From assembly GCA_016839945.1 (NCBI GenBank), contig JAEOTE010000038.1, positions 1-36,308 on the forward strand: a DNA stretch of 36,308 nucleotides. The letters are read 5' to 3'. Source of the stretch: Candidatus Heimdallarchaeota archaeon (GTDB lineage: Archaea; Asgardarchaeota; Heimdallarchaeia; Heimdallarchaeales; Heimdallarchaeaceae). A program made the translations under genes and the position numbers. The stretch's first letter is position 1. Each line of letters starts with the position of its first letter. Shown here piece by piece: positions 25,204 to 34,693 of this stretch. Under the pieces are notes generated by a model that saw only the letters and a program-made list of their open reading frames with translations, did no database searches and was not told where the DNA came from.

Positions 25204-27345
25204 TTATTTTATTTCACGAATTGATGGTCCTTTATACACAGCTTTATCGAATGCTAACCTTCGCATTGGAGATTGTGTAGTTACTTCTTCATAGTAGTGT
25301 GCCCCTAATCCAGCAATTCTTCCAAAAACAAATACTGCTTTTGCCAATTTGGGATTTATATCCATATCTGCAATAATTGCCCCAATTACCCCATCAACAT
25401 TAATAGGAAGATTCATACCTCTAACTCTAAAGAAGACATCACTCACTAATTTTGAAACAGTAACACACTCTTTTGCGTAACCTGCTTTTTCTGAGAGATT
25501 CCAAAGAACATCCCTTCTTGGATCTCGAGTATGGATGCGGTGACCTAGACCTTCTATTCGTTTACCTGTTTTTATTATCTCTTTCATTATTCTAAAAGTT
25601 GCTTCTTCTAAATCGATATTATTTTCTTTTGCTTTTTCTACAACAGATAAGAAAAATTCTGCTGCTTTCTGTCCAGCACCACCATGAACATCTGTTATTG
25701 CTTGAATTCCTGCAGATAATGCTACCTCGAACGATGTCCGTGTTGATGCAAGAATCAAGGTTGCTTGAGCAGATGGAGGTGTAACACCATGGTCCACACA
25801 TGCTGTAATTATAGCTTCAAGTAATCTGGTTTTTTGCTTCTCCTGTTTTTCTTCACCTACTAATCCTAGATAAATCATATCTGCAAAGGAGATGTTATCT
25901 ATAGAAATCTGATTTAAAACTTCTAGATTATCAAAAATAATCGCTAGATATCTTAAAGCTCTTCCTAAGCTAAACGCTATAATCGCTGATTCATCAGTAC
26001 TTTTTTTCATAAATTCAGATATATGTGAATCAAGAAGTAAACAAGTACCAATTATTTTAGATACGTCAGAATTTGGTGATATATCAAGTCTTTCAGAAAA
26101 TTTCTCTTTTGCAGCTTCTTTTGCTATTTTTTCAAGTTCTTCTATTTTTTCTAAATTTGGAAACTCACCAGTAACTAAAAGATGAGAAGTTTCTAATAAT
26201 CCTTTATTAGCAATAACTTCCTGAAGAGGATATCCTCTTATCAATAAATTATTTGGCATCACATTTGTCACAAGTGTTCCCCAAGTGGGCTCTGGTGGCT
26301 TAGCATTCCATTTTTCTTTCATTTTCTTATAATAATCCTCAATTTCAAAGTATGTTTTATTTAACTTTGATTTCACTACGTCGATCAAGTCTTTTTGGTG
26401 GTTTACAACCGTTACTTCTGCCTTTTCTAAGATCTCTCTTTTTGAATTATATGTTCCATATCTTTGACCTGGTGCAATTACAGCTCCTGCATGACCCATA
26501 GTTTTTCCTTCTGGTGCGTTTGCTCCGGAAATCATAGCAACCAATGGTTTGGTGTATTTTTCAGGATGAGAAATCATATCCTGTGCAAGTATTTCTTCTT
26601 GCATCCCCCCTATCTCTCCAGCAATAACAACTAAATCCGTATGTTCAAAATTCATCACCAATGAGACTAAGTCAATGAACCTGGATCCAATTGCACCATC
26701 TCCACCAACTCCTAATACTCCATTCTGTGAGATTCCTGCACTTGCTAAAGCATCAGATAAGTGATAAAGAATTGCACCACTTCTTGATAATATTGTGACA
26801 CCTTTAGGTCCTACAATGTCATCAACTTGTTGAGCTTGAAAAATATCTGGAAGCATTCCAACTTTAATACTTTCAGGTGGGAAGATTATTCCAGGTGTAT
26901 TTCCTCCAAATAAAATTGTCTTGTGTTTTCTTGCTTCTACTAAAATATCTCTAACATCTCTTAAAGGAATGAACTCTGATATAAGAACAACTATTGGTAT
27001 TCCTGCTTTGATTACTTCAATAGTAGAATCTTTTGCTGTAGAGTAGTGTTTCCAAATACTGGCTACAGCAATATTTGGGTGGTTTTCGACTGCTTCAGCT
27101 GCAGTTTCATATATAGGAATAGTTTCATGTACCTTTGTACCTCCTCTTCCTGGAGCTACACCACAAGTAACATTTGTTCCATATTCCATCATGAGTTGTG
27201 CATGTCTTGTTCCTTGTCTTCCAAGACCTACAATCATTGTTTCAATTGTTTCAGCTTTCGATATCTTCTCCGCTAGATCCGGTCGGACTTGTTTAATTAG
27301 ATAATATAACAACCCTTGGTCAACTGATATTTTTTCAGTACTCAT
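25204..27345 (-). CDS. Acyl-CoA synthetase (NDP-forming) alpha subunit fused to a citryl-CoA lyase/citrate-synthase-like domain (ATP-citrate-lyase-alpha-like)
   Basis: N half: GVAPGRGG, GGNTPG, SRSG, GVGGD, GEIGG, MGHAGA (phospho-His). C half: W.T.VT..PN..IRGY, DHGVTPPSA, HGGAG, GLGHRIH..DPR, NVDG. Confidence 0.85.
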   Translation of the reverse strand: MSTEKISVDQGLLYYLIKQVRPDLAEKISKAETIETMIVGLGRQGTRHAQLMMEYGTNVTCGVAPGRGGTKVHETIPIYETAAEAVENHPNIAVASIWKHYSTAKDSTIEVIKAGIPIVVLISEFIPLRDVRDILVEARKHKTILFGGNTPGIIFPPESIKVGMLPDIFQAQQVDDIVGPKGVTILSRSGAILYHLSDALASAGISQNGVLGVGGDGAIGSRFIDLVSLVMNFEHTDLVVIAGEIGGMQEEILAQDMISHPEKYTKPLVAMISGANAPEGKTMGHAGAVIAPGQRYGTYNSKREILEKAEVTVVNHQKDLIDVVKSKLNKTYFEIEDYYKKMKEKWNAKPPEPTWGTLVTNVMPNNLLIRGYPLQEVIANKGLLETSHLLVTGEFPNLEKIEELEKIAKEAAKEKFSERLDISPNSDVSKIIGTCLLLDSHISEFMKKSTDESAIIAFSLGRALRYLAIIFDNLEVLNQISIDNISFADMIYLGLVGEEKQEKQKTRLLEAIITACVDHGVTPPSAQATLILASTRTSFEVALSAGIQAITDVHGGAGQKAAEFFLSVVEKAKENNIDLEEATFRIMKEIIKTGKRIEGLGHRIHTRDPRRDVLWNLSEKAGYAKECVTVSKLVSDVFFRVRGMNLPINVDGVIGAIIADMDINPKLAKAVFVFGRIAGLGAHYYEEVTTQSPMRRLAFDKAVYKGPSIREIK

Positions 27346-28659
27346 CTAGTTCACTTCCTTTTCTATTAACTGTTTTTTGACCTTGAAACCATAATCAATG
27401 CCATCTCTAATTACATCAGCCATTATTTTCTGATTACCAATAACTATGTGTAAATCTTTCAAAGGTTCTGGAGTTTCCCTTTTAGCTTTTTCAAGGTATG
27501 CCCTAGCTGCAGCTAAATCTGTTCCAACCATTCTACCAAAAACAGGAATCATCCTCTTCTTAGACATAAACCTGTCTCTTAGTGACATTATTAACCCTCT
27601 TATGAATATATCACAGCTGGAAATACCTCCAAATCTACTAGTTATAATAATGTCAGTAGCAGGATGATCCATTAATAAATGAAACATATCTGCCACTTTA
27701 ATAAGTGAAGGACCTCCCCCGCTGTCCATGAAATTTATTGGTATAACTTTACCTTCAAAATAACGGTTCCCTATATTAACTACTTCATCAATTGAAAAAA
27801 TTCCATAACCAGCACCACCTGGTACTAATCCTACATACAATTTGTCTTTATCTTTTACAAAATCTTCTGGATGTTCTATCAAATCAAGATAGGGAAATCC
27901 AATTTTATATGCTTGTTCCTCGTATACAGTCTGCTCTGATACATCGTGTCTTTTACTGCGAGGATCAATATTAATTGATTTCAATAAAGGCGCTTGTCTG
28001 TAAAGACTATTATCATCAAGAACAATTTTTGCATCTGCAGCAATAACACTATTATCTTTTGTTACGATTAATGGATTTATTTCACAAATTTTTGCTTCAA
28101 CTTGCTGAAAAGCATTATAAAGTGATCTAATTGCATTGCTTAATTTATCTTTAATTGTTAAGAAATCTGCATTTTTCTCAACTAAAAATATAGCAGCTTC
28201 TTCTGCAATATCATCTGGTAAATCTTTAACGTTATCTTTTATTATTTTCTTCCAAATCTTTTCAGGGTGAGTTCTAGCAACTTCTTCAATATCGATACCA
28301 CCACTTGCAGATGTTACAATTACAATATCGAAGGTTGCAGGATCTGTGGTTACAGACATATAGATTTCATTCGCAACATCTACAGCTTTCTCAAGAAGAA
28401 TCTTTTTGACAGGACATCCATGGATTTTCATTTCAAACATTTTTTCAACATTTTCTCTGGTTTCTTCAATATTGGAACATAACTTGATTCCACCTGCTTT
28501 TCCCCTTCCCCCTATCAAAACCATAGCTTTTACCATTACTGGAAATTTCAAAGATAAATCGTCTAATTCTTCTATTTGTTCTATTGCTGCAACTTGTTTT
28601 GGTATAACAAGCCCATGTTTTTCAAAAATCTGTTTCGCTTCATATTCATATAATTTCAT
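27346..28659 (-). CDS. Acyl-CoA synthetase (NDP-forming) beta subunit, ATP-grasp (succinyl/citryl-CoA synthetase-like)
   Basis: MKLYEYEAK, VKA.V..GGRGKAGG, GGIDIEE, EINPL, ADAK..DDN, GGAGYG, NFMDSGGG, FGGISSCD. Confidence 0.88.
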   Translation of the reverse strand: MKLYEYEAKQIFEKHGLVIPKQVAAIEQIEELDDLSLKFPVMVKAMVLIGGRGKAGGIKLCSNIEETRENVEKMFEMKIHGCPVKKILLEKAVDVANEIYMSVTTDPATFDIVIVTSASGGIDIEEVARTHPEKIWKKIIKDNVKDLPDDIAEEAAIFLVEKNADFLTIKDKLSNAIRSLYNAFQQVEAKICEINPLIVTKDNSVIAADAKIVLDDNSLYRQAPLLKSINIDPRSKRHDVSEQTVYEEQAYKIGFPYLDLIEHPEDFVKDKDKLYVGLVPGGAGYGIFSIDEVVNIGNRYFEGKVIPINFMDSGGGPSLIKVADMFHLLMDHPATDIIITSRFGGISSCDIFIRGLIMSLRDRFMSKKRMIPVFGRMVGTDLAAARAYLEKAKRETPEPLKDLHIVIGNQKIMADVIRDGIDYGFKVKKQLIEKEVN

Positions 28660-28671
28660 CTATTATTACCT

Positions 28672-30525
28672 CTATTCTGAATATTGTTTTTTGTAGTACT
28701 TTATCAAACCACCAGCATTGAAGATTTTTAGCAATTCAGCTGGTAACTTACCTGTATTGTAAACACTATCTCCGTTAGTTATTTGACCTCCTTCTAAATC
28801 TATGGAGGTTAGAAAATCTTTGTTGAAGTTATCTACAAATTCTGGGTGAACAATGATTGGTAATCCTTGGTTAATAGCAGATCTATAGAAAATACGTGCT
28901 ACTGATTTGACAATCACAGCTTTAACACCCGCAGAAGCTAGCCCTACAGCTGGATGTTCTCTTGATGAACCACAACCAAAATTACTACCAGCAACTATGA
29001 TATCATCATTTGTTACGCGAGATGAAAAAGTTTCATCTAGACCTTTGAATAAATGAGGTATTATTTTTTCACCATCAGCTGATTTAATGTCGTAAGTTAA
29101 ATTGCCTGCAAACATTTGATCTGTATTTAAATCATCTATTTCGCTATAATCCCAGGTACCCTTAAGGTAACGGTTATCATCAGTTGATATTTGAAGAGTT
29201 CTCATTTCTTTAACTCTTGATTGTAGCTGTAATTTCGATTCTCTTTTTTCAACTTTTATAGGTAGATAATCTCTTGGATCAACAATCCTTCCTTCAATTG
29301 CTGATGCAACCACTGTTGCTGGTGAGGCTAGAAATACTGAACTTCTTTTGTTTCCCATTCTACCAAGAAAATTCCTATTGGCTGTTGATATAACATTCCA
29401 GTCATCAGCTGGTAAACCTTGTCCTTTACCAAGGCATGGGCCACAGCTGCAAGATAGAATTATAGCCCCTGCTTCAACAAGTGTTTGAATAACCCCTTGT
29501 TTCATAGCATTAAGATAAATCTCTTGAGATGCTGGTGCAACAAGAAACTGAACACCTGTTTTTACTTTTCTATCTTTGATTATTGATGCTGCAATGACTA
29601 AATCATCTAAACGAGCATTAGTACAGGTACCAAGGAATGCTTGATCGATAAATGTTTCATCAATGTTTCTTATAAAATGAACATTATCAACTTGGTGTGG
29701 AACTGCAACTAAAGGTTCCAACTCATTAAGATTAACAATTAATTCTTGGATAAATGAAGCATCGTTATCTGACCACATTAGGTTGTCTTGTAGAGTTGTG
29801 TCTTCTGAATCATGTTTTTCCTTCAACCAATCAGATAATATTTTGTCAGGAGGAAAAACCGCTGTTTTGGCCCCCATTTCTGATGCTAAATTTGCCAAAG
29901 TCATTCGTTCTGAAATGCTAAGCGATTCCACTCCATCTCCATGAAACTCAATTGCTTTGTATGTGGCCCCTGCTGAACCAATTGCATTCATAAGGTATAA
30001 AGCAATATCTTTTGCATAAACTCCTGGAGGAAGTCTTCCATTTAGGATTACTTTGATGGTTTCAGGTACTCTAAACCATGTTTTTCCAGTTAACCATAAT
30101 CCAGCAGTTTCAGTTCTATCAATACCAGCTGCAAAAGCTGAAAAAGCTCCACTTGTACAAGTGTGCGAATCTGATCCTACAATAAGCATTTCTGGCAATG
30201 CATGGTTTGCCATTAATTGATGACATATTCCTTTTCCCTCATCGTAAAAATTAGTAATTTCTTGATTTTTGACTAATTCTCGAATAATCTTATGATCATT
30301 TGCAATTGTAACACTTGCTGGTGGTGAATCATGATCCAAAACAATAACTAAACGGTTAGGATATTTGATTTTTGTATCACCCATTTTTTGAAATGTTTTA
30401 TAGATTGAAGCAGAGTTATCATGAGATAGAATTAAGTCGGGTTCAGCAAAAACAATATCTCCTGCACTAACTTCTTGACCAGATTTTTTTGAAAATAATT
30501 TTTCTGAATAAGTCTTACCACTCAT
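28672..30525 (-). CDS. Aconitase-family dehydratase, fused LeuC+LeuD (homoaconitase-like)
   Basis: SHDN, LDH, GICHQ, DSHTCT, GTCTNAR, CGPCLG, NRNFLGRMG, LASP; swivel domain NTDQM, NFGCGSSREH, ARIFYRSAIN. Confidence 0.92.
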   Translation of the reverse strand: MSGKTYSEKLFSKKSGQEVSAGDIVFAEPDLILSHDNSASIYKTFQKMGDTKIKYPNRLVIVLDHDSPPASVTIANDHKIIRELVKNQEITNFYDEGKGICHQLMANHALPEMLIVGSDSHTCTSGAFSAFAAGIDRTETAGLWLTGKTWFRVPETIKVILNGRLPPGVYAKDIALYLMNAIGSAGATYKAIEFHGDGVESLSISERMTLANLASEMGAKTAVFPPDKILSDWLKEKHDSEDTTLQDNLMWSDNDASFIQELIVNLNELEPLVAVPHQVDNVHFIRNIDETFIDQAFLGTCTNARLDDLVIAASIIKDRKVKTGVQFLVAPASQEIYLNAMKQGVIQTLVEAGAIILSCSCGPCLGKGQGLPADDWNVISTANRNFLGRMGNKRSSVFLASPATVVASAIEGRIVDPRDYLPIKVEKRESKLQLQSRVKEMRTLQISTDDNRYLKGTWDYSEIDDLNTDQMFAGNLTYDIKSADGEKIIPHLFKGLDETFSSRVTNDDIIVAGSNFGCGSSREHPAVGLASAGVKAVIVKSVARIFYRSAINQGLPIIVHPEFVDNFNKDFLTSIDLEGGQITNGDSVYNTGKLPAELLKIFNAGGLIKYYKKQYSE

Positions 30526-30543
30526 TTTCTAATCCTCACTTTT

Positions 30544-31050
30544 CTACATCCCTTCTCCTAGTTTTAACAAACCTCCAGCTTCCATAATGTCTAATACTGG
30601 TTTTGGTATAGATTTGCATTTAATCTCATTCCCTTTGTCTAAATTAACAATGATTGCGTCTTCTATATTGATCTCCAAAGCATCAAGGTTATCAATTGGT
30701 AATTGTGAGATACCTGGGGCTTCTATAAGTAATAGACCAGAATTCACAGCATTACTATAATAAATGGGACCAAAAGATTCTCCAACTATTGCCTTAATTT
30801 TATGGGCTAGAAAGCCAGTTACAGCTTGTTGTCTTGTCGATCCTTTTCCAAAATTCTTTCCAACAACAATAATCTCTCCTTCATGATTTCCTTTTCCAAA
30901 ACTCTCGAAACCTTCAAGATTTCCAAATATGTGTGGCTTAATTTCTTGAGGATCGTGCATTGTCAAGAGGGACTGATGAAAGATTTGATCAGTATCAATG
31001 TCATCTATAATGACTAATTTTGCTTTTCCACTTATCTTCTTTATGCTCAT
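30544..31050 (-). CDS. LeuD/HacB-like dehydratase small subunit (divergent)
   Basis: DDIDTDQI, GKNFGKGSTRQQA, SFGPIYYSNAVNSGL, AGGL. Confidence 0.9.
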   Translation of the reverse strand: MSIKKISGKAKLVIIDDIDTDQIFHQSLLTMHDPQEIKPHIFGNLEGFESFGKGNHEGEIIVVGKNFGKGSTRQQAVTGFLAHKIKAIVGESFGPIYYSNAVNSGLLLIEAPGISQLPIDNLDALEINIEDAIIVNLDKGNEIKCKSIPKPVLDIMEAGGLLKLGEGM

Positions 31051-32331
31051 TTAATCATCTCTAATCTTTGGTCTTGCAATTTTCCCTTGAATCGCAGTAG
31101 CTGCAGCTACCACTGGACTCGCCAAATAGACATCAGCTGGTCCAATTTTTCCTTGAGTATTGCGGTTACCTGTTGTTAAAGTAACTGCTGTTTTCCCTCC
31201 AGTCAAGCCATATTGACCTTTTGCGCAAGTTGAACAGCCAACTCCAAAAATATTACCTCCGGCTTCTAGAATTGTAGCCATAGCACTTTGATTATGTATT
31301 GAAATAAAGTCTTCACGAGTTGCAGGAACAATACCAAGTCTTACATCTGGGTCAACTTCCTTATTTTTTAGAATTTTAGCTGCATCTTGGATATCAGTTG
31401 CACTTCCATTTGTACAAGATCCTATAATAATTGAGTTAATTGGAGTTCCCAATACATCATCAATAGGTTTAACATTATGAGGATGAGGAGGACACGCAAT
31501 CTGTAAATCCAAATCTTGAATATCTATAATGAGCTCAGAGCAATATTCAGCATTTTTATCTGCGCTTATTAATTCTAGATTGATATTGAATTGTCTGTAA
31601 TATTCTGCTACTTGCTCATCTGGTGGGACGAAACCAATCATTCCAGAAGCTTCAGTAATTAGAGAACATAGTGTAACTCGATCTTCAATGCTTAATTCTG
31701 ATATGCACTCTCCATAGAACTCAACAGCTTGACCAGTTATTTCATACTCATGAAGTTTCTTAAGAACAAATAAAGCCAGATCTTTAGATGTTGTAGGCCA
31801 TTTGTATGATCCTTTTAAAATAACTTTTACCGTTTCAGGGATTTTTATCCAAGATTTTCCAGTTTTCATGGCAAAAGCAAGCATTACATCACCAGCTCCT
31901 TGACCTAAAATACCCAATGCTCCTAAAATGTTGTAATGGCTATCAGCCCCAAAAACAATATCTCCAGGTTTCGCAAAACCCCTTCGAAACAATAGATGTG
32001 ATCCAATACCTGAACCTAAATCAGTAACTTGAATATTGTGTTCCTTAGCAAACACACGAATTTTTTCCTGATCAATTGCGTGTTTTGGGTCGTTTCCATA
32101 TGGATAACAATCTGGTGTGAAAATAATCTTTCCATTGTCAAATGTTTTTGAATTAGAGTAATGTTTTTGGAATAAATCCACAACTTGAGGTCCTGCATAA
32201 TCCCTTGCTGTAACTAAATCGATGTTAATCCATACAATATTTCCAGGAAAAATCTCTTCATCTGATACACTGCTGTGTGTTTTAATTATTTTTTCAATTA
32301 TAGTTAAACCAGTCATCTCGCCCAATTTCAT
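31051..32331 (-). CDS. LeuC/HacA-like dehydratase large subunit (divergent)
   Basis: TIIEKI, DSH, GSCTNG, CSTC, NRN, YLASP; substitutions ARDY, PDC, GIGSH. Confidence 0.9.
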   Translation of the reverse strand: MKLGEMTGLTIIEKIIKTHSSVSDEEIFPGNIVWINIDLVTARDYAGPQVVDLFQKHYSNSKTFDNGKIIFTPDCYPYGNDPKHAIDQEKIRVFAKEHNIQVTDLGSGIGSHLLFRRGFAKPGDIVFGADSHYNILGALGILGQGAGDVMLAFAMKTGKSWIKIPETVKVILKGSYKWPTTSKDLALFVLKKLHEYEITGQAVEFYGECISELSIEDRVTLCSLITEASGMIGFVPPDEQVAEYYRQFNINLELISADKNAEYCSELIIDIQDLDLQIACPPHPHNVKPIDDVLGTPINSIIIGSCTNGSATDIQDAAKILKNKEVDPDVRLGIVPATREDFISIHNQSAMATILEAGGNIFGVGCSTCAKGQYGLTGGKTAVTLTTGNRNTQGKIGPADVYLASPVVAAATAIQGKIARPKIRDD

Positions 32332-32438
32332 CGATTAATAAGAAGGTAATAAAATTAACTCTATGTGTGTAATTATGTACAAAACGTAAAATATTATTTT
32401 ATTCATTATTAATTCAAGAAAAAAATAGGTGAGGTAAT

Positions 32439-33572
32439 TTATGCCTTCAATTTCTCACAAATAGCATCAGCCATTTCAGATGTTGTTGAAGATCCACCCA
32501 TATCATAAGTTCTGACTTTTCCTTCTAGTATAACAGTAGCAACCGCTTCCTCTATTTTCTTTGCCATCTCTTTTTCGCCAAGCCAATCAAGCATCATTTT
32601 TGCTGCTAATATCTGCGCAATAGGGTTAACTTTATTCATACCTATATATTTTGGAGCAGAACCATGTGTTGGCTCAAATACTGCAAAATTATCTCCAATA
32701 TTGCCAGAACATGCAAAACCTAATCCACCTATAAGTTGAGCACAGAGATCTGAAACTATGTCTCCAAACATATTTGAAGCAACAAGAACTCCATAATTTT
32801 GTGGGTTCTTAACTAACCACATAGCCATCGCATCAATATTTGTTTCCCAGAGTTCCAAATTGTTATATTCTTGAACAAGCTTACGAGCTTCTCTTATCAT
32901 CAGTCCACTTGTTTCTCTGATTACATTTGGTTTTTCTACAACAGTTACTGTTGGGTAACCAAAGTCTCTTGCATAATCCATACTTGCCTTAAGAATACGT
33001 TTGACTCCTTTCCTAGTAAAAATCCTAGTTGAAATCGCAACATCATTAAGATTTGCTCCTTCAAATCTTTTAGCTTTGGGATGGTTCTCGATTATTGTTT
33101 TCATTACTCCTTCAGGAACTGGATGCCATTCAATCCCAACATAAAGACCTTCAGTATTCTCACGAAAAACCACTAAATCTAGATCATCTCTGTAATTTAA
33201 TGGATTTCCTGGGTATGCTTTACATGGACGCAAATTTACGTATAAATCAAATAATTGTCTCAATCTTACTATTGGACTGAAATAGATCAAATCCTTTCCT
33301 TGTAATTCAGGTATTAATTCTTTTTCTGCTTCTTCTTTTGGTTTGGATGTAATAGCAGAGAATAAACAACAATCAGATTGTTTTAACAGTTCTATTGTTC
33401 TTTCAGGTAGTGCGTCCCCCTCTTTACACCAAAATTCCCAACCAATGTCACCCCACTTATATTCAGCAAGTTCACTAAAGCCCACAGCATCAAGAGCTTT
33501 CATTGCTGCATCAGTAACATCTTTGCCAATTCCATCACCAGGTAAAACTGCAATTTTATATTTTTTACTCAT
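32439..33572 (-). CDS. Beta-decarboxylating dehydrogenase (isocitrate/homoisocitrate family), NADP-type signature
   Basis: PGDGIG, SPIVRLRQ.FDLYVNLRP, RENTEGLY, KPNV, NMFGDIVSD, FEPTHGSAPKY, NP, TYDMGG. Confidence 0.92.
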   Translation of the reverse strand: MSKKYKIAVLPGDGIGKDVTDAAMKALDAVGFSELAEYKWGDIGWEFWCKEGDALPERTIELLKQSDCCLFSAITSKPKEEAEKELIPELQGKDLIYFSPIVRLRQLFDLYVNLRPCKAYPGNPLNYRDDLDLVVFRENTEGLYVGIEWHPVPEGVMKTIIENHPKAKRFEGANLNDVAISTRIFTRKGVKRILKASMDYARDFGYPTVTVVEKPNVIRETSGLMIREARKLVQEYNNLELWETNIDAMAMWLVKNPQNYGVLVASNMFGDIVSDLCAQLIGGLGFACSGNIGDNFAVFEPTHGSAPKYIGMNKVNPIAQILAAKMMLDWLGEKEMAKKIEEAVATVILEGKVRTYDMGGSSTTSEMADAICEKLKA

Positions 33573-33588
33573 TTTTTCACCTTTTCTC

Positions 33589-34149
33589 TTAATATCCGTA
33601 TATTTTTCTTACAGGTTCAAAACATAGAAAATCACATCTGTGGATTATCTCCACTTCTGTTAATCTTTTTATTTTATCTCCTTCTTTACTATGGAAGATT
33701 ATTGCTTGTTTGACACCTAATGGTAAATCAAACTCATAAACGATTTCTAAACCTTGAGCTGGGTGTCGAAGGATTTTCCCTGCTTTGTTTTGAACTATCT
33801 TTCCTGTTGAATCTTTTTCATATTCAACAAACTTTCCTACATCGTGTAGTAATCCCCCAGCTATAAGTTCATCCCTATTTAGATTATCTGCTAAATTAAG
33901 AAATTCATATTGTTGATAAGTTGCTATACACATCTGCGTAACAGCTCGAATGTGATCAATGATTGAGATTTTAACAGACAAGTCACTATTAACTAATTCT
34001 GGTATCAATAATGTGAAAGGAATTCGAAGAAGATCCTCCTCTGTCCATCCACCAAGTGATATTGCTTTTTCAAGTGATTTAACAACTTTTTCTTGCAATT
34101 CTTCATTTTTGATTTCTAATATTTCAGGAAAAAGATTTTTCATATCCAT
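33589..34149 (-). CDS. HD-domain phosphohydrolase
   Basis: DHIRAVT, LLHDVGK, RHP, FHS, HRCD; first gene of the tricarboxylate module. Confidence 0.88.
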   Translation of the reverse strand: MDMKNLFPEILEIKNEELQEKVVKSLEKAISLGGWTEEDLLRIPFTLLIPELVNSDLSVKISIIDHIRAVTQMCIATYQQYEFLNLADNLNRDELIAGGLLHDVGKFVEYEKDSTGKIVQNKAGKILRHPAQGLEIVYEFDLPLGVKQAIIFHSKEGDKIKRLTEVEIIHRCDFLCFEPVRKIYGY

Positions 34150-34294: not shown

Positions 34295-34693
34295 TTAATC
34301 AGTAATTTCTAAAAACCCAAAAAGTGATAACTTATTGTCTCCATGTAAAGAAATAACAGGTAATCCTTTTTGTCTTAACCTTAATCGGAGAGCTGAGTCA
34401 TTAGTTGCAATAATGGCATTATGTTCTTCAGCTAATCTTTCTAGTTCGAAATCAGGATTTCCTTCAGTTTTTGAATGAAGAATCTCATATTTTTCTGCTA
34501 ATTTTAATGCAAATTGTGCTTTCTGTTTAGTCGAAGGAGATGATCCTTTTATTAACTTCTTAAGTTCCTTTACAATAATTTCAGGAATAACAATTTCGAA
34601 ATCAATTGGTACAATTCGTTCTAATTCAAAAGTAATGTTTATTTTCTTCTCTAGAGGTAACATCAACATGCTTGAATCCAGTATAACTAACAT
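34295..34693 (-). CDS. PIN-domain protein (Fcf1/Utp23-like)
   Basis: ILDSSML, ELKKL, PD, IATNDSALR; conserved position after aIF2-gamma. Confidence 0.88.
   Translation of the reverse strand: MLVILDSSMLMLPLEKKINITFELERIVPIDFEIVIPEIIVKELKKLIKGSSPSTKQKAQFALKLAEKYEILHSKTEGNPDFELERLAEEHNAIIATNDSALRLRLRQKGLPVISLHGDNKLSLFGFLEITD

Follow-up and report, generated by a model that had tools for sequence, protein, structure and literature searches.

A conserved seven-gene tricarboxylate module of Heimdallarchaeota with an ATP-dependent ligase/lyase, possibly acting on homocitrate

Seven genes on the minus strand at positions 25204-34149 of the window, which is the whole stretch of 36,308 nucleotides analysed here and belongs to contig C4 of the 3.0 Mb, 88% complete Heimdallarchaeota metagenome-assembled genome G000, form a conserved operon that may encode a single ATP-linked tricarboxylate pathway. 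Judged from the sequences, the acid handled by this pathway is tentatively taken to be homocitrate (C7) in preference to citrate. The products are an HD protein, a beta-decarboxylating dehydrogenase, two dehydratases of the LeuCD type and a two-chain ligase/lyase, and the whole is possibly a variant of the ATP-citrate lyase (ACL) and citryl-CoA synthetase with citryl-CoA lyase (CCS-CCL) systems with a substrate that may be new.

The genes are co-directional and separated by gaps of 16, 107, 0, 18, 12 and 0 nt, the genes and gaps agreeing with a preliminary description that was made from the DNA alone. With the domain identities of all seven products taken from Pfam and NCBIfam profiles, the features are:

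33589..34149, minus strand: HD protein, 186 aa, the first gene of the operon (Pfam HD, 38 bits, cut-off 22)
32439..33572, minus strand: Iso_dh-family beta-decarboxylating dehydrogenase, 377 aa (Pfam Iso_dh, 298 bits)
32332..32438, no strand: AT-rich spacer of 107 nt between the dehydrogenase and LeuC' genes, the sole long gap of the operon
31051..32331, minus strand: LeuC', a divergent large subunit of the LeuC/HacA type, 426 aa (NF001614, 359 bits, under the cut-off of 385)
30544..31050, minus strand: LeuD', the small subunit that pairs with LeuC', 168 aa (TIGR02087, 109.1 bits, cut-off 108.95)
28672..30525, minus strand: fused LeuC-LeuD dehydratase, 617 aa (NF001614, 501 bits, cut-off 385)
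27346..28659, minus strand: ATP-grasp beta chain, an acid-CoA ligase like that of succinyl-CoA synthetase (SCS), 437 aa (Pfam ATP-grasp_2, 153 bits)
25204..27345, minus strand: alpha chain fused to a citrate synthase (CS)-like domain, 713 aa (Pfam CoA_binding, Ligase_CoA and Citrate_synt, the last over profile positions 20-354 of 357)

A processing site or an internal promoter might lie within the spacer. Flanking the operon are genes for aIF2-gamma, a PIN protein (PIN_9, at 34295-34693) and a Taw/Trm5 methyltransferase.

The order of the seven genes is far beyond chance, since they are syntenic, together with the flanking aIF2-gamma/PIN and Taw genes, in approximately 25 species-level Heimdallarchaeota genomes at amino-acid identities of 65-96%. 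The self-contained module that had been proposed is thus real and conserved. A scan of the genome collection with the alpha chain gave 27 loci, approximately 25 of which are from Heimdallarchaeota species representatives. Fused alpha chains (~712 aa, at least 58% identity) make up at least 611 database clusters, among whose labels are Heimdallarchaeaceae, Kariarchaeaceae, Hodarchaeales, Sifarchaeia, Borrarchaeum, Thermoplasmatota and Bipolaricaulia, with other bacteria as well. Public annotation goes no further than calling them 'hypothetical', 'SCS alpha subunit' or 'citrate/2-methylcitrate synthase'.

The arrangement of the genes varies between lineages, with Iso_dh-LeuC-LeuD-LeuCD fusion-beta-alpha in Hodarchaeales, Iso_dh-HD-beta-alpha-PrpD adjoining a Tfr/Hdr-like block in Bipolaricaulia, and HD-beta-alpha in Thermoplasmatota. 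A bacterium whose proteins carry type IX secretion system tails (locus L025) has the HD gene, a fused LeuC'D' orthologue, a PIN gene, split orthologues of the LeuC-LeuD fusion, beta and alpha; the fusion states are therefore swapped at L025:3653-8537, the LeuC'D' orthologue being fused and the other dehydratase split, with the PIN-domain gene in between. The closed Hodarchaeales-like genome G256 contains all seven parts, which are dispersed: LeuD'-LeuC' is divergent to LeuC-LeuD, HD-Iso_dh is gapless, and beta-alpha lies beside CitF. Its complement of citrate-type enzymes is unusually rich and includes a further protein, of 618 aa, that matches citrate synthase over the full length; its sister genomes hold stand-alone CCL-like genes. 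On the Thermoplasmatota contig L047 the HD-beta-alpha genes (L047:1239-6615) are approximately 1.5 kb from an archaeal mevalonate-pathway-type cluster that comprises a GHMP kinase, a UbiD-family decarboxylase with an LpdD-like partner and a split AcnX.

The beta and alpha chains are predicted from their sequences to work in the manner of ACL, or of CCS and CCL together, yet they fall outside the AclAB clade. Their architecture is that of an ACL, an ATP-grasp chain alongside a chain in which CoA-binding and ligase domains are fused to a CS-homology domain, with the phospho-His motif present. The phospho-His loop of alpha, MGHAGA, aligns with that of SCS and ACL and is invariant across 54 homologues, as are the CS/CCL catalytic residues, namely the His of HGGA, the His of GxGHR, the Asp of NVDG and the Arg of DPR and GRxxG. 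When compared with solved structures the beta chain scores 176 bits against Thermus SCS-beta, 94 against the CCS large subunit and 44 against AclB; it reaches 51 bits with the ACL-specific Pfam family Citrate_synth_N, under the cut-off of 83, and is 24% identical to the canonical AclB of G256. It also has an insertion of approximately 50 aa that carries the invariant residues R237-H238-D239. The N-terminal half of alpha matches SCS-alpha at 181 bits, Chlorobium AclA at 106 and the Hydrogenobacter CCS small subunit at 105, and is 38% identical to the SucD of G000 itself and 24-28% identical to the canonical AclA of G256.

For the C-terminal half of alpha the best solved match is the CCL of Hydrogenobacter (6hxp, 128 bits), followed by citrate synthases at approximately 60 bits and the CS-homology domain of ACL at 48. 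The preliminary description had called the lyase non-canonical, which agrees with these scores, nearer as they are to SCS and Hydrogenobacter CCL than to AclAB. The lyase domain scores 196.8 with the citryl-CoA lyase profile NF004869, for which the cut-off is 212, and the motifs are conserved. Compared with stand-alone CCL and canonical AclA it has an additional CS-like segment of approximately 110 residues at its N-terminus, and in the alignment it retains the CS/CCL His where canonical AclA has Phe. That the two chains are just a second SCS was considered and rejected, as G000 has a genuine SucCD elsewhere, on contig C149, which at 389 and 425 bits is over both NCBIfam cut-offs; with the SucCD equivalog profiles the module chains stay under the cut-offs, beta scoring 240 (cut-off 370) and alpha 210 (cut-off 336).

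Among the nearest known systems is that of Hydrogenobacter thermophilus, CcsAB and Ccl (6hxq, 6hxp), in which a two-subunit ATP-dependent ligase homologous to SCS is likewise followed by a CS-fold lyase, and the motifs DHGxxPPS, HGGA, GxGHR and NVDG are common to both lyases. Unlike it, the module fuses the small ligase subunit to the lyase and has the extra N-terminal segment, and its ligase halves are nearer to true SCS (181 and 176 bits) than to CcsAB (105 and 94). The Hydrogenobacter system is not known to have two LeuCD dehydratases, a dehydrogenase like homoisocitrate dehydrogenase (HICDH) and an HD protein as partners. AclAB/ACLY (Chlorobium 6hxj, human 6hxh) also combines an ATP-grasp subunit with a fusion of CoA-binding/ligase and CS-homology domains that bears the phospho-His; the module differs in its low identity to the AclBA of a related genome (24-28%), in its Citrate_synth_N score and in keeping the His that is Phe in AclA. 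For Magnetococcus and Endoriftia/tubeworm symbionts there is a proposed 'type II ACL' (PMC6783814, PMC3522073, PMC5459899), in which ccsB and ccl are described as fused, so that by description the module may resemble it; the type II ACL primer peptides (PMC3522073) were not found in the module alpha chain, which is uninformative.

Both dehydratases are of the LeuCD/homoaconitase type, as had been thought, with the Cys ligands, DSH and GS[ST]R present in each and LeuC' just under its profile cut-off. The LeuC-LeuD fusion carries the canonical motifs SHD, DSH, Cys301/361/364 and GSSREH, with LTYD in the loop of its small domain, and is close to methanogen homoaconitase (HACN) and isopropylmalate isomerase (IPMI), its PDB matches being 4kp2 (HACN large subunit, 362 bits) and 4kp1 (355 bits). 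LeuC' matches the IPMI of M. jannaschii (4kp1) at 240 bits and keeps the DSH motif together with its iron-sulphur ligands, C306, C366 and C369, while in its active site 'ARD' replaces the 'xHD' of LeuC/HacA, a change kept in 25 of 27 sequences and seen as TARD in G256. In LeuD', GSTRQQ replaces GSSREH and is invariant in the orthologues. The specificity loop of LeuD', aligned to 3vba and 2pkp, reads SLLT[IM]H, compared with YLRT in methanogen homoaconitase and YLVY in IPMI, so that neither loop of the module, LLT[IM] in LeuD' or LTYD in the fusion, is of either type. A Lys in the small-domain loop of the fusion was considered as a stand-in for the homoaconitase Arg and dropped, since it is not conserved in the orthologues of G256 and the bacterium and the alignment is gapped there. 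The fusion-type dehydratase is split in bacterium L025 and in G256, and both dehydratases are retained in every full module.

The dehydrogenase is a mosaic of signatures: its substrate helix (YFSPIVRLR) resembles that of HICDH, its cofactor motif (HGSAPKY) is of the NADP type, and it has a 'GIEW' insertion like that of isocitrate dehydrogenase (IDH). It is under the cut-off of all NCBIfam equivalogs, that of HICDH included (AksF2, 322 against a cut-off of 540), and its best PDB matches are Thermus HICDH (230 bits) and NAD-IDH (225 bits), with isopropylmalate dehydrogenase (IPMDH) at 178. Every IDH aligned has Ser-x-Asn in the substrate helix (S113/N115 in E. coli), read as S-L-N in the E. coli enzyme and S-I-N in NAD-IDH 6ltf, where the module enzyme has S-P-I. 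The helix is conserved as SPIV[RKA]LR in 26 orthologues, as is HGSAPKY. The helix of the S. pombe HICDH (3ty3), YSSPIVALR, is identical at 9 of 9 positions in the Bipolaricaulia module enzyme and at 7 of 9 in that of G000; over a longer stretch the three read GYSSPIVALRKK in S. pombe, TYSSPIVALRQL in Bipolaricaulia and YFSPIVRLRQL in G000. A resemblance to the helix of Sulfolobus IPMDH (VVVKLRQ) is also apparent. The NADP-type label given earlier to this enzyme holds in that it rests on HGSAPKY, where NAD-type HICDH reads HGSAPDI.

These features recall the front half of the alpha-aminoadipate pathway of fungi and Thermus, in which two aconitase-family enzymes act in series, both being required in fungi for the isomerisation of homocitrate (PMC3556520). 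The module shares with that pathway the S. pombe-type HICDH helix and dehydratases whose nearest relatives are methanogen homoaconitase and IPMI. It differs in having an ATP-dependent ligase/lyase in place of homocitrate synthase, an NADP-type cofactor motif and small-subunit loops other than YLRT, and no downstream lysine enzymes were found in G000.

For the substrate, the direction and the split of work between the dehydratases we infer the following scheme. The HICDH-like dehydrogenase would use NADPH to carboxylate 2-oxoadipate with CO2, giving homoisocitrate, which would then be converted to homocitrate by way of cis-homoaconitate, each of the LeuCD-type dehydratases probably catalysing one of the two half-reactions, which is how the aminoadipate pathway works in fungi. 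The SCS-like ligase would form homocitryl-CoA from homocitrate, ATP and CoA via the phospho-His, and the fused CS/CCL-like domain would split homocitryl-CoA into acetyl-CoA and 2-oxoglutarate. All of the steps should be reversible in principle, with the cleaving direction favoured because ATP-dependent lyases of such architecture are known as cleaving enzymes.

Homocitrate is suggested in the first place by the dehydrogenase, which lacks the Ser-x-Asn of IDH and has the helix of fungal HICDH, and by the two aconitase-family dehydratases, which are always kept. By comparison, the canonical ACL cluster of G256 (C1:3850262-3856683, or L067:2262-8683) has one 639-aa aconitase, convergent to AclB (429 aa), AclA (612 aa) and an Iso_dh of 399 aa that carries the IDH signature S-A-N; the cluster adjoins a LarA-like gene. 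Like the module it groups a ligase/lyase with a dehydratase and a decarboxylating dehydrogenase, but it has no HD gene, and it shares its genome with the module. G256 also encodes a 384-aa citrate synthase and an 898-aa AcnA alongside all seven module parts, and in G178 the module is found together with canonical CS and AcnA. Were the module to handle citrate as well, its redundancy with the canonical citrate enzymes of these two genomes would be hard to explain.

A further consideration concerns the HMGL-like synthases (isopropylmalate, citramalate or homocitrate synthase), none of which was found in G000, G130, G003, G256, G208 or G136, one of these genomes being closed and one 99% complete. 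Likewise, the earlier statement that no isopropylmalate or homocitrate synthase is adjacent to the operon is correct at the locus, and none was found anywhere in the 88%-complete G000. Any C7 acid made or cleaved must therefore go via the ACL-like enzyme. Ordinary leucine, isoleucine or lysine biosynthesis was also rejected as the role of the module, given the lack of an HMGL-like synthase in the six genomes, of IlvD in three genomes of the module's family, and of LysX/RimK and DapA (dihydrodipicolinate synthase) in G000. The possibility raised in the preliminary description, that the genes are not conserved elsewhere or are ordinary leucine/lysine enzymes with an unrelated SCS, is thus contradicted on each count, by the conservation of the module, by these absences and by the separate, genuine SucCD.

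A number of observations weigh against homocitrate. The lyase motifs DHGxxPPS, HGGA, GxGHR, NVDG and GRxxGL match the characterised citryl-CoA lyase of Hydrogenobacter, and the lyase domain shows nothing that indicates a longer 2-oxoacid. In the dehydrogenase the KY motif and the GIEW insertion resemble NADP-IDH, and the Arg of the methanogen homoaconitase YLRT is missing from both small-subunit loops. Contexts of a citrate or tricarboxylic acid (TCA) cycle type are found elsewhere, with CitF by beta/alpha in G256 and PrpD and the Tfr/Hdr-like block in Bipolaricaulia, and distant relatives of the HD protein adjoin CitMHS and TctABC transporters. As for a source or sink of 2-oxoadipate, G000 offers only two unspecific saccharopine-dehydrogenase-family genes with uninformative neighbourhoods, from a family also present in the module-less genome G026. 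Furthermore, the module holds the sole CS-, aconitase- and IDH-family genes of G000 and of genera g1, g2 and g4, and G000 has an Ldh_2-type candidate malate dehydrogenase, a class-I fumarase, SdhAB, SucCD and a Kor-like 2-oxoacid:ferredoxin oxidoreductase, so that with the rest of the cycle in place citrate would complete it.

It is quite possible, if somewhat doubtful, that the module is the citrate arm that was first suggested and the organism's sole link between acetyl-CoA and oxaloacetate, citrate, isocitrate and 2-oxoglutarate, made up of an SCS-derived ATP-citrate lyase, LeuCD-type 'aconitases' and a dehydrogenase of broad specificity that uses NADP. Citrate would then be cleaved, in an arm of the reductive TCA cycle or in glutamate fermentation, or made with ATP recovery, as is reported of Desulfobacter postgatei. 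In its favour are the conserved CCL-type motifs and top structural match, the citrate-type neighbours in other lineages, the KY and GIEW features, and the presence in the module of the only Citrate_synt, Aconitase and Iso_dh genes of G000 and the three genera; the Thermus HICDH, which is the top PDB match of the dehydrogenase, accepts isocitrate too. No haem-copper oxidase or acetyl-CoA synthase was found.

Whilst the check for citrate synthase, AcnA/AcnB, Icd and homocitrate synthase elsewhere in G000, which the preliminary description had called for, did find no other CS-, aconitase- or IDH-family or HMGL-like gene, the argument that the module fills a gap is weak. Canonical CS and AcnA have been lost family-wide, with or without the module, and two closed g3 genomes and g5 have neither these genes nor the module, which shows that the citrate arm is dispensable in the family. 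The loss is thus independent of the module, and since the module-bearing G003 has no SdhA, the module is not tied to a complete cycle. In addition, the Asn of IDH is missing from the dehydrogenase, whose helix is that of fungal HICDH, two dehydratases are retained though citrate needs one, and full canonical citrate sets coexist with the module in G256 and G178. Of the citrate arm as first proposed, what stands is that these are the only genes of their kind in the family, and what does not fit is the helix and the relatives that have a canonical citrate set. An analogue such as homocitrate, originally mentioned as a fallback, has become no less likely than citrate, and there is a slight preference for it. 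It is also possible that in the G000 family promiscuous enzymes may serve both acids.

The same homocitrate chemistry might also run forwards, as an ATP-conserving counterpart of homocitrate synthase that leads to 2-oxoadipate and feeds a fungal-type aminoadipate pathway to lysine that needs neither LysW nor diaminopimelate. This is improbable when taken by itself, although homocitrate-type chemistry in either direction is about evenly balanced against everything else. The absence of DapA and LysX/RimK from G000 is consistent with such a route, as are the fungal-type helix of the dehydrogenase and two two-domain proteins of the saccharopine-dehydrogenase family. These proteins (Sacchrp_dh_NADP with Sacchrp_dh_C, at G000:C77:1478-2716 and G000:C138:1191-2330) have no NCBIfam equivalog match and could serve lysine, saccharopine or polyamine chemistry. 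On the other hand, the family also lacks IlvD and isopropylmalate synthase and appears to be broadly auxotrophic, G000 is 88% complete, the saccharopine-dehydrogenase family is unspecific and occurs in G026 without the module, and the NADP-type motif is unlike that of the NAD-dependent biosynthetic HICDHs. An extended proposal, that Heimdallarchaeia make lysine by the fungal-type aminoadipate route with the reversed ligase/lyase as homocitrate synthase, or, put cautiously, that they have an ATP-dependent homocitrate lyase pathway which shortens 2-oxoadipate to 2-oxoglutarate and acetyl-CoA with CO2 uptake, is speculative and rather unlikely. If the lysine route did exist, the aminoadipate pathway of eukaryotes would have an archaeal forerunner in the module, Heimdallarchaeia being the closest archaeal relatives of eukaryotes.

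A different analogue has equally little in its favour, whether 2-methylcitrate, citramalate or an acid of the isopropylmalate type (for instance in an ATP-driven reversal of 2-oxoacid chain elongation), and the same goes for ordinary leucine or lysine biosynthesis with an SCS next to it that has no part in it. The loops of the small subunits resemble those of IPMI in being hydrophobic and have no Arg, the dehydrogenase helix resembles that of Sulfolobus IPMDH, and PrpD is a neighbour in Bipolaricaulia. Against this, the six genomes have no gene of the isopropylmalate synthase, CimA or homocitrate synthase families, the family has no IlvD, the genuine SucCD is separate, the lyase retains the Arg and His that bind a dicarboxylic 2-oxoacid, and, overall, HICDH and IDH (230 and 225 bits) match the dehydrogenase better than IPMDH does (178).

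There are general reports of ACL homologues from Asgard archaea (bioRxiv 10.1101/2022.10.25.513756; PMC11976288), and the literature searched, the coverage of which is incomplete, yielded nothing on this operon, on a homocitrate lyase or on homocitryl-CoA. The result would be new whichever of citrate and homocitrate is the substrate. Were it citrate, an ATP-citrate lyase with a full-length CS-like domain would have been assembled independently here, together with non-aconitase dehydratases, which bears on the origins of CS and ACL. Were it homocitrate, as is slightly preferred here, an undescribed ATP-dependent lyase pathway would connect C6 with C5 2-oxoacids in anaerobes. Reconstructions of Asgard metabolism in which the module is scored as SCS, ACL, aconitase or IDH may be wrong.

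The remaining gene of the operon, that of the HD protein, was at first regarded as a mere neighbour, a view that has to be given up as it is a genuine conserved member of the system across phyla. Its linkage with the module is seen in G256, a bacterium, Thermoplasmatota and Bipolaricaulia; in four lineages its immediate neighbour is Iso_dh or beta, and in an unfused variant it adjoins CCL and an aconitase-family gene. Orthologues at 65% identity or more are confined to module-bearing genomes. By its Pfam score, its ligands and its fold the protein belongs to the superfamily of HD-domain metal-dependent phosphohydrolases, and it may be a hydrolase. The ligand pattern is of the dinuclear type (H66, H102-D103, H129, H153 and D173) and is near-invariant in an alignment of 81 sequences. 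An AlphaFold2 model (pLDDT 98) has the HD domain of YhaM as its sole clear fold match (TM 0.65); the fold search with this model returned generic HD folds and no close solved relative, and a search of the protein atlas returned 'HD domain' clusters only. A complex prediction of the HD protein with beta and alpha(1-345) scored 0.00, which carries no verdict either way.

The wider HD family comprises approximately 539 clusters at 50% identity, of stand-alone proteins of ~180 aa, and the module supplies this small family with a reproducible metabolic context. Distant members (30-39% identity, on metagenome contigs L052, L053, L054, L065 and L066) are found beside TctCBA, CitMHS and DctPQM transporters, and also beside CitF, OAD_beta/carboxyltransferase, RraA-like, HMGL-like, 2-Hacid_dh or Ldh_2 genes. 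The family as a whole seems to be tied to the metabolism of hydroxy- and oxo-carboxylic acids, and not to that of nucleotides.

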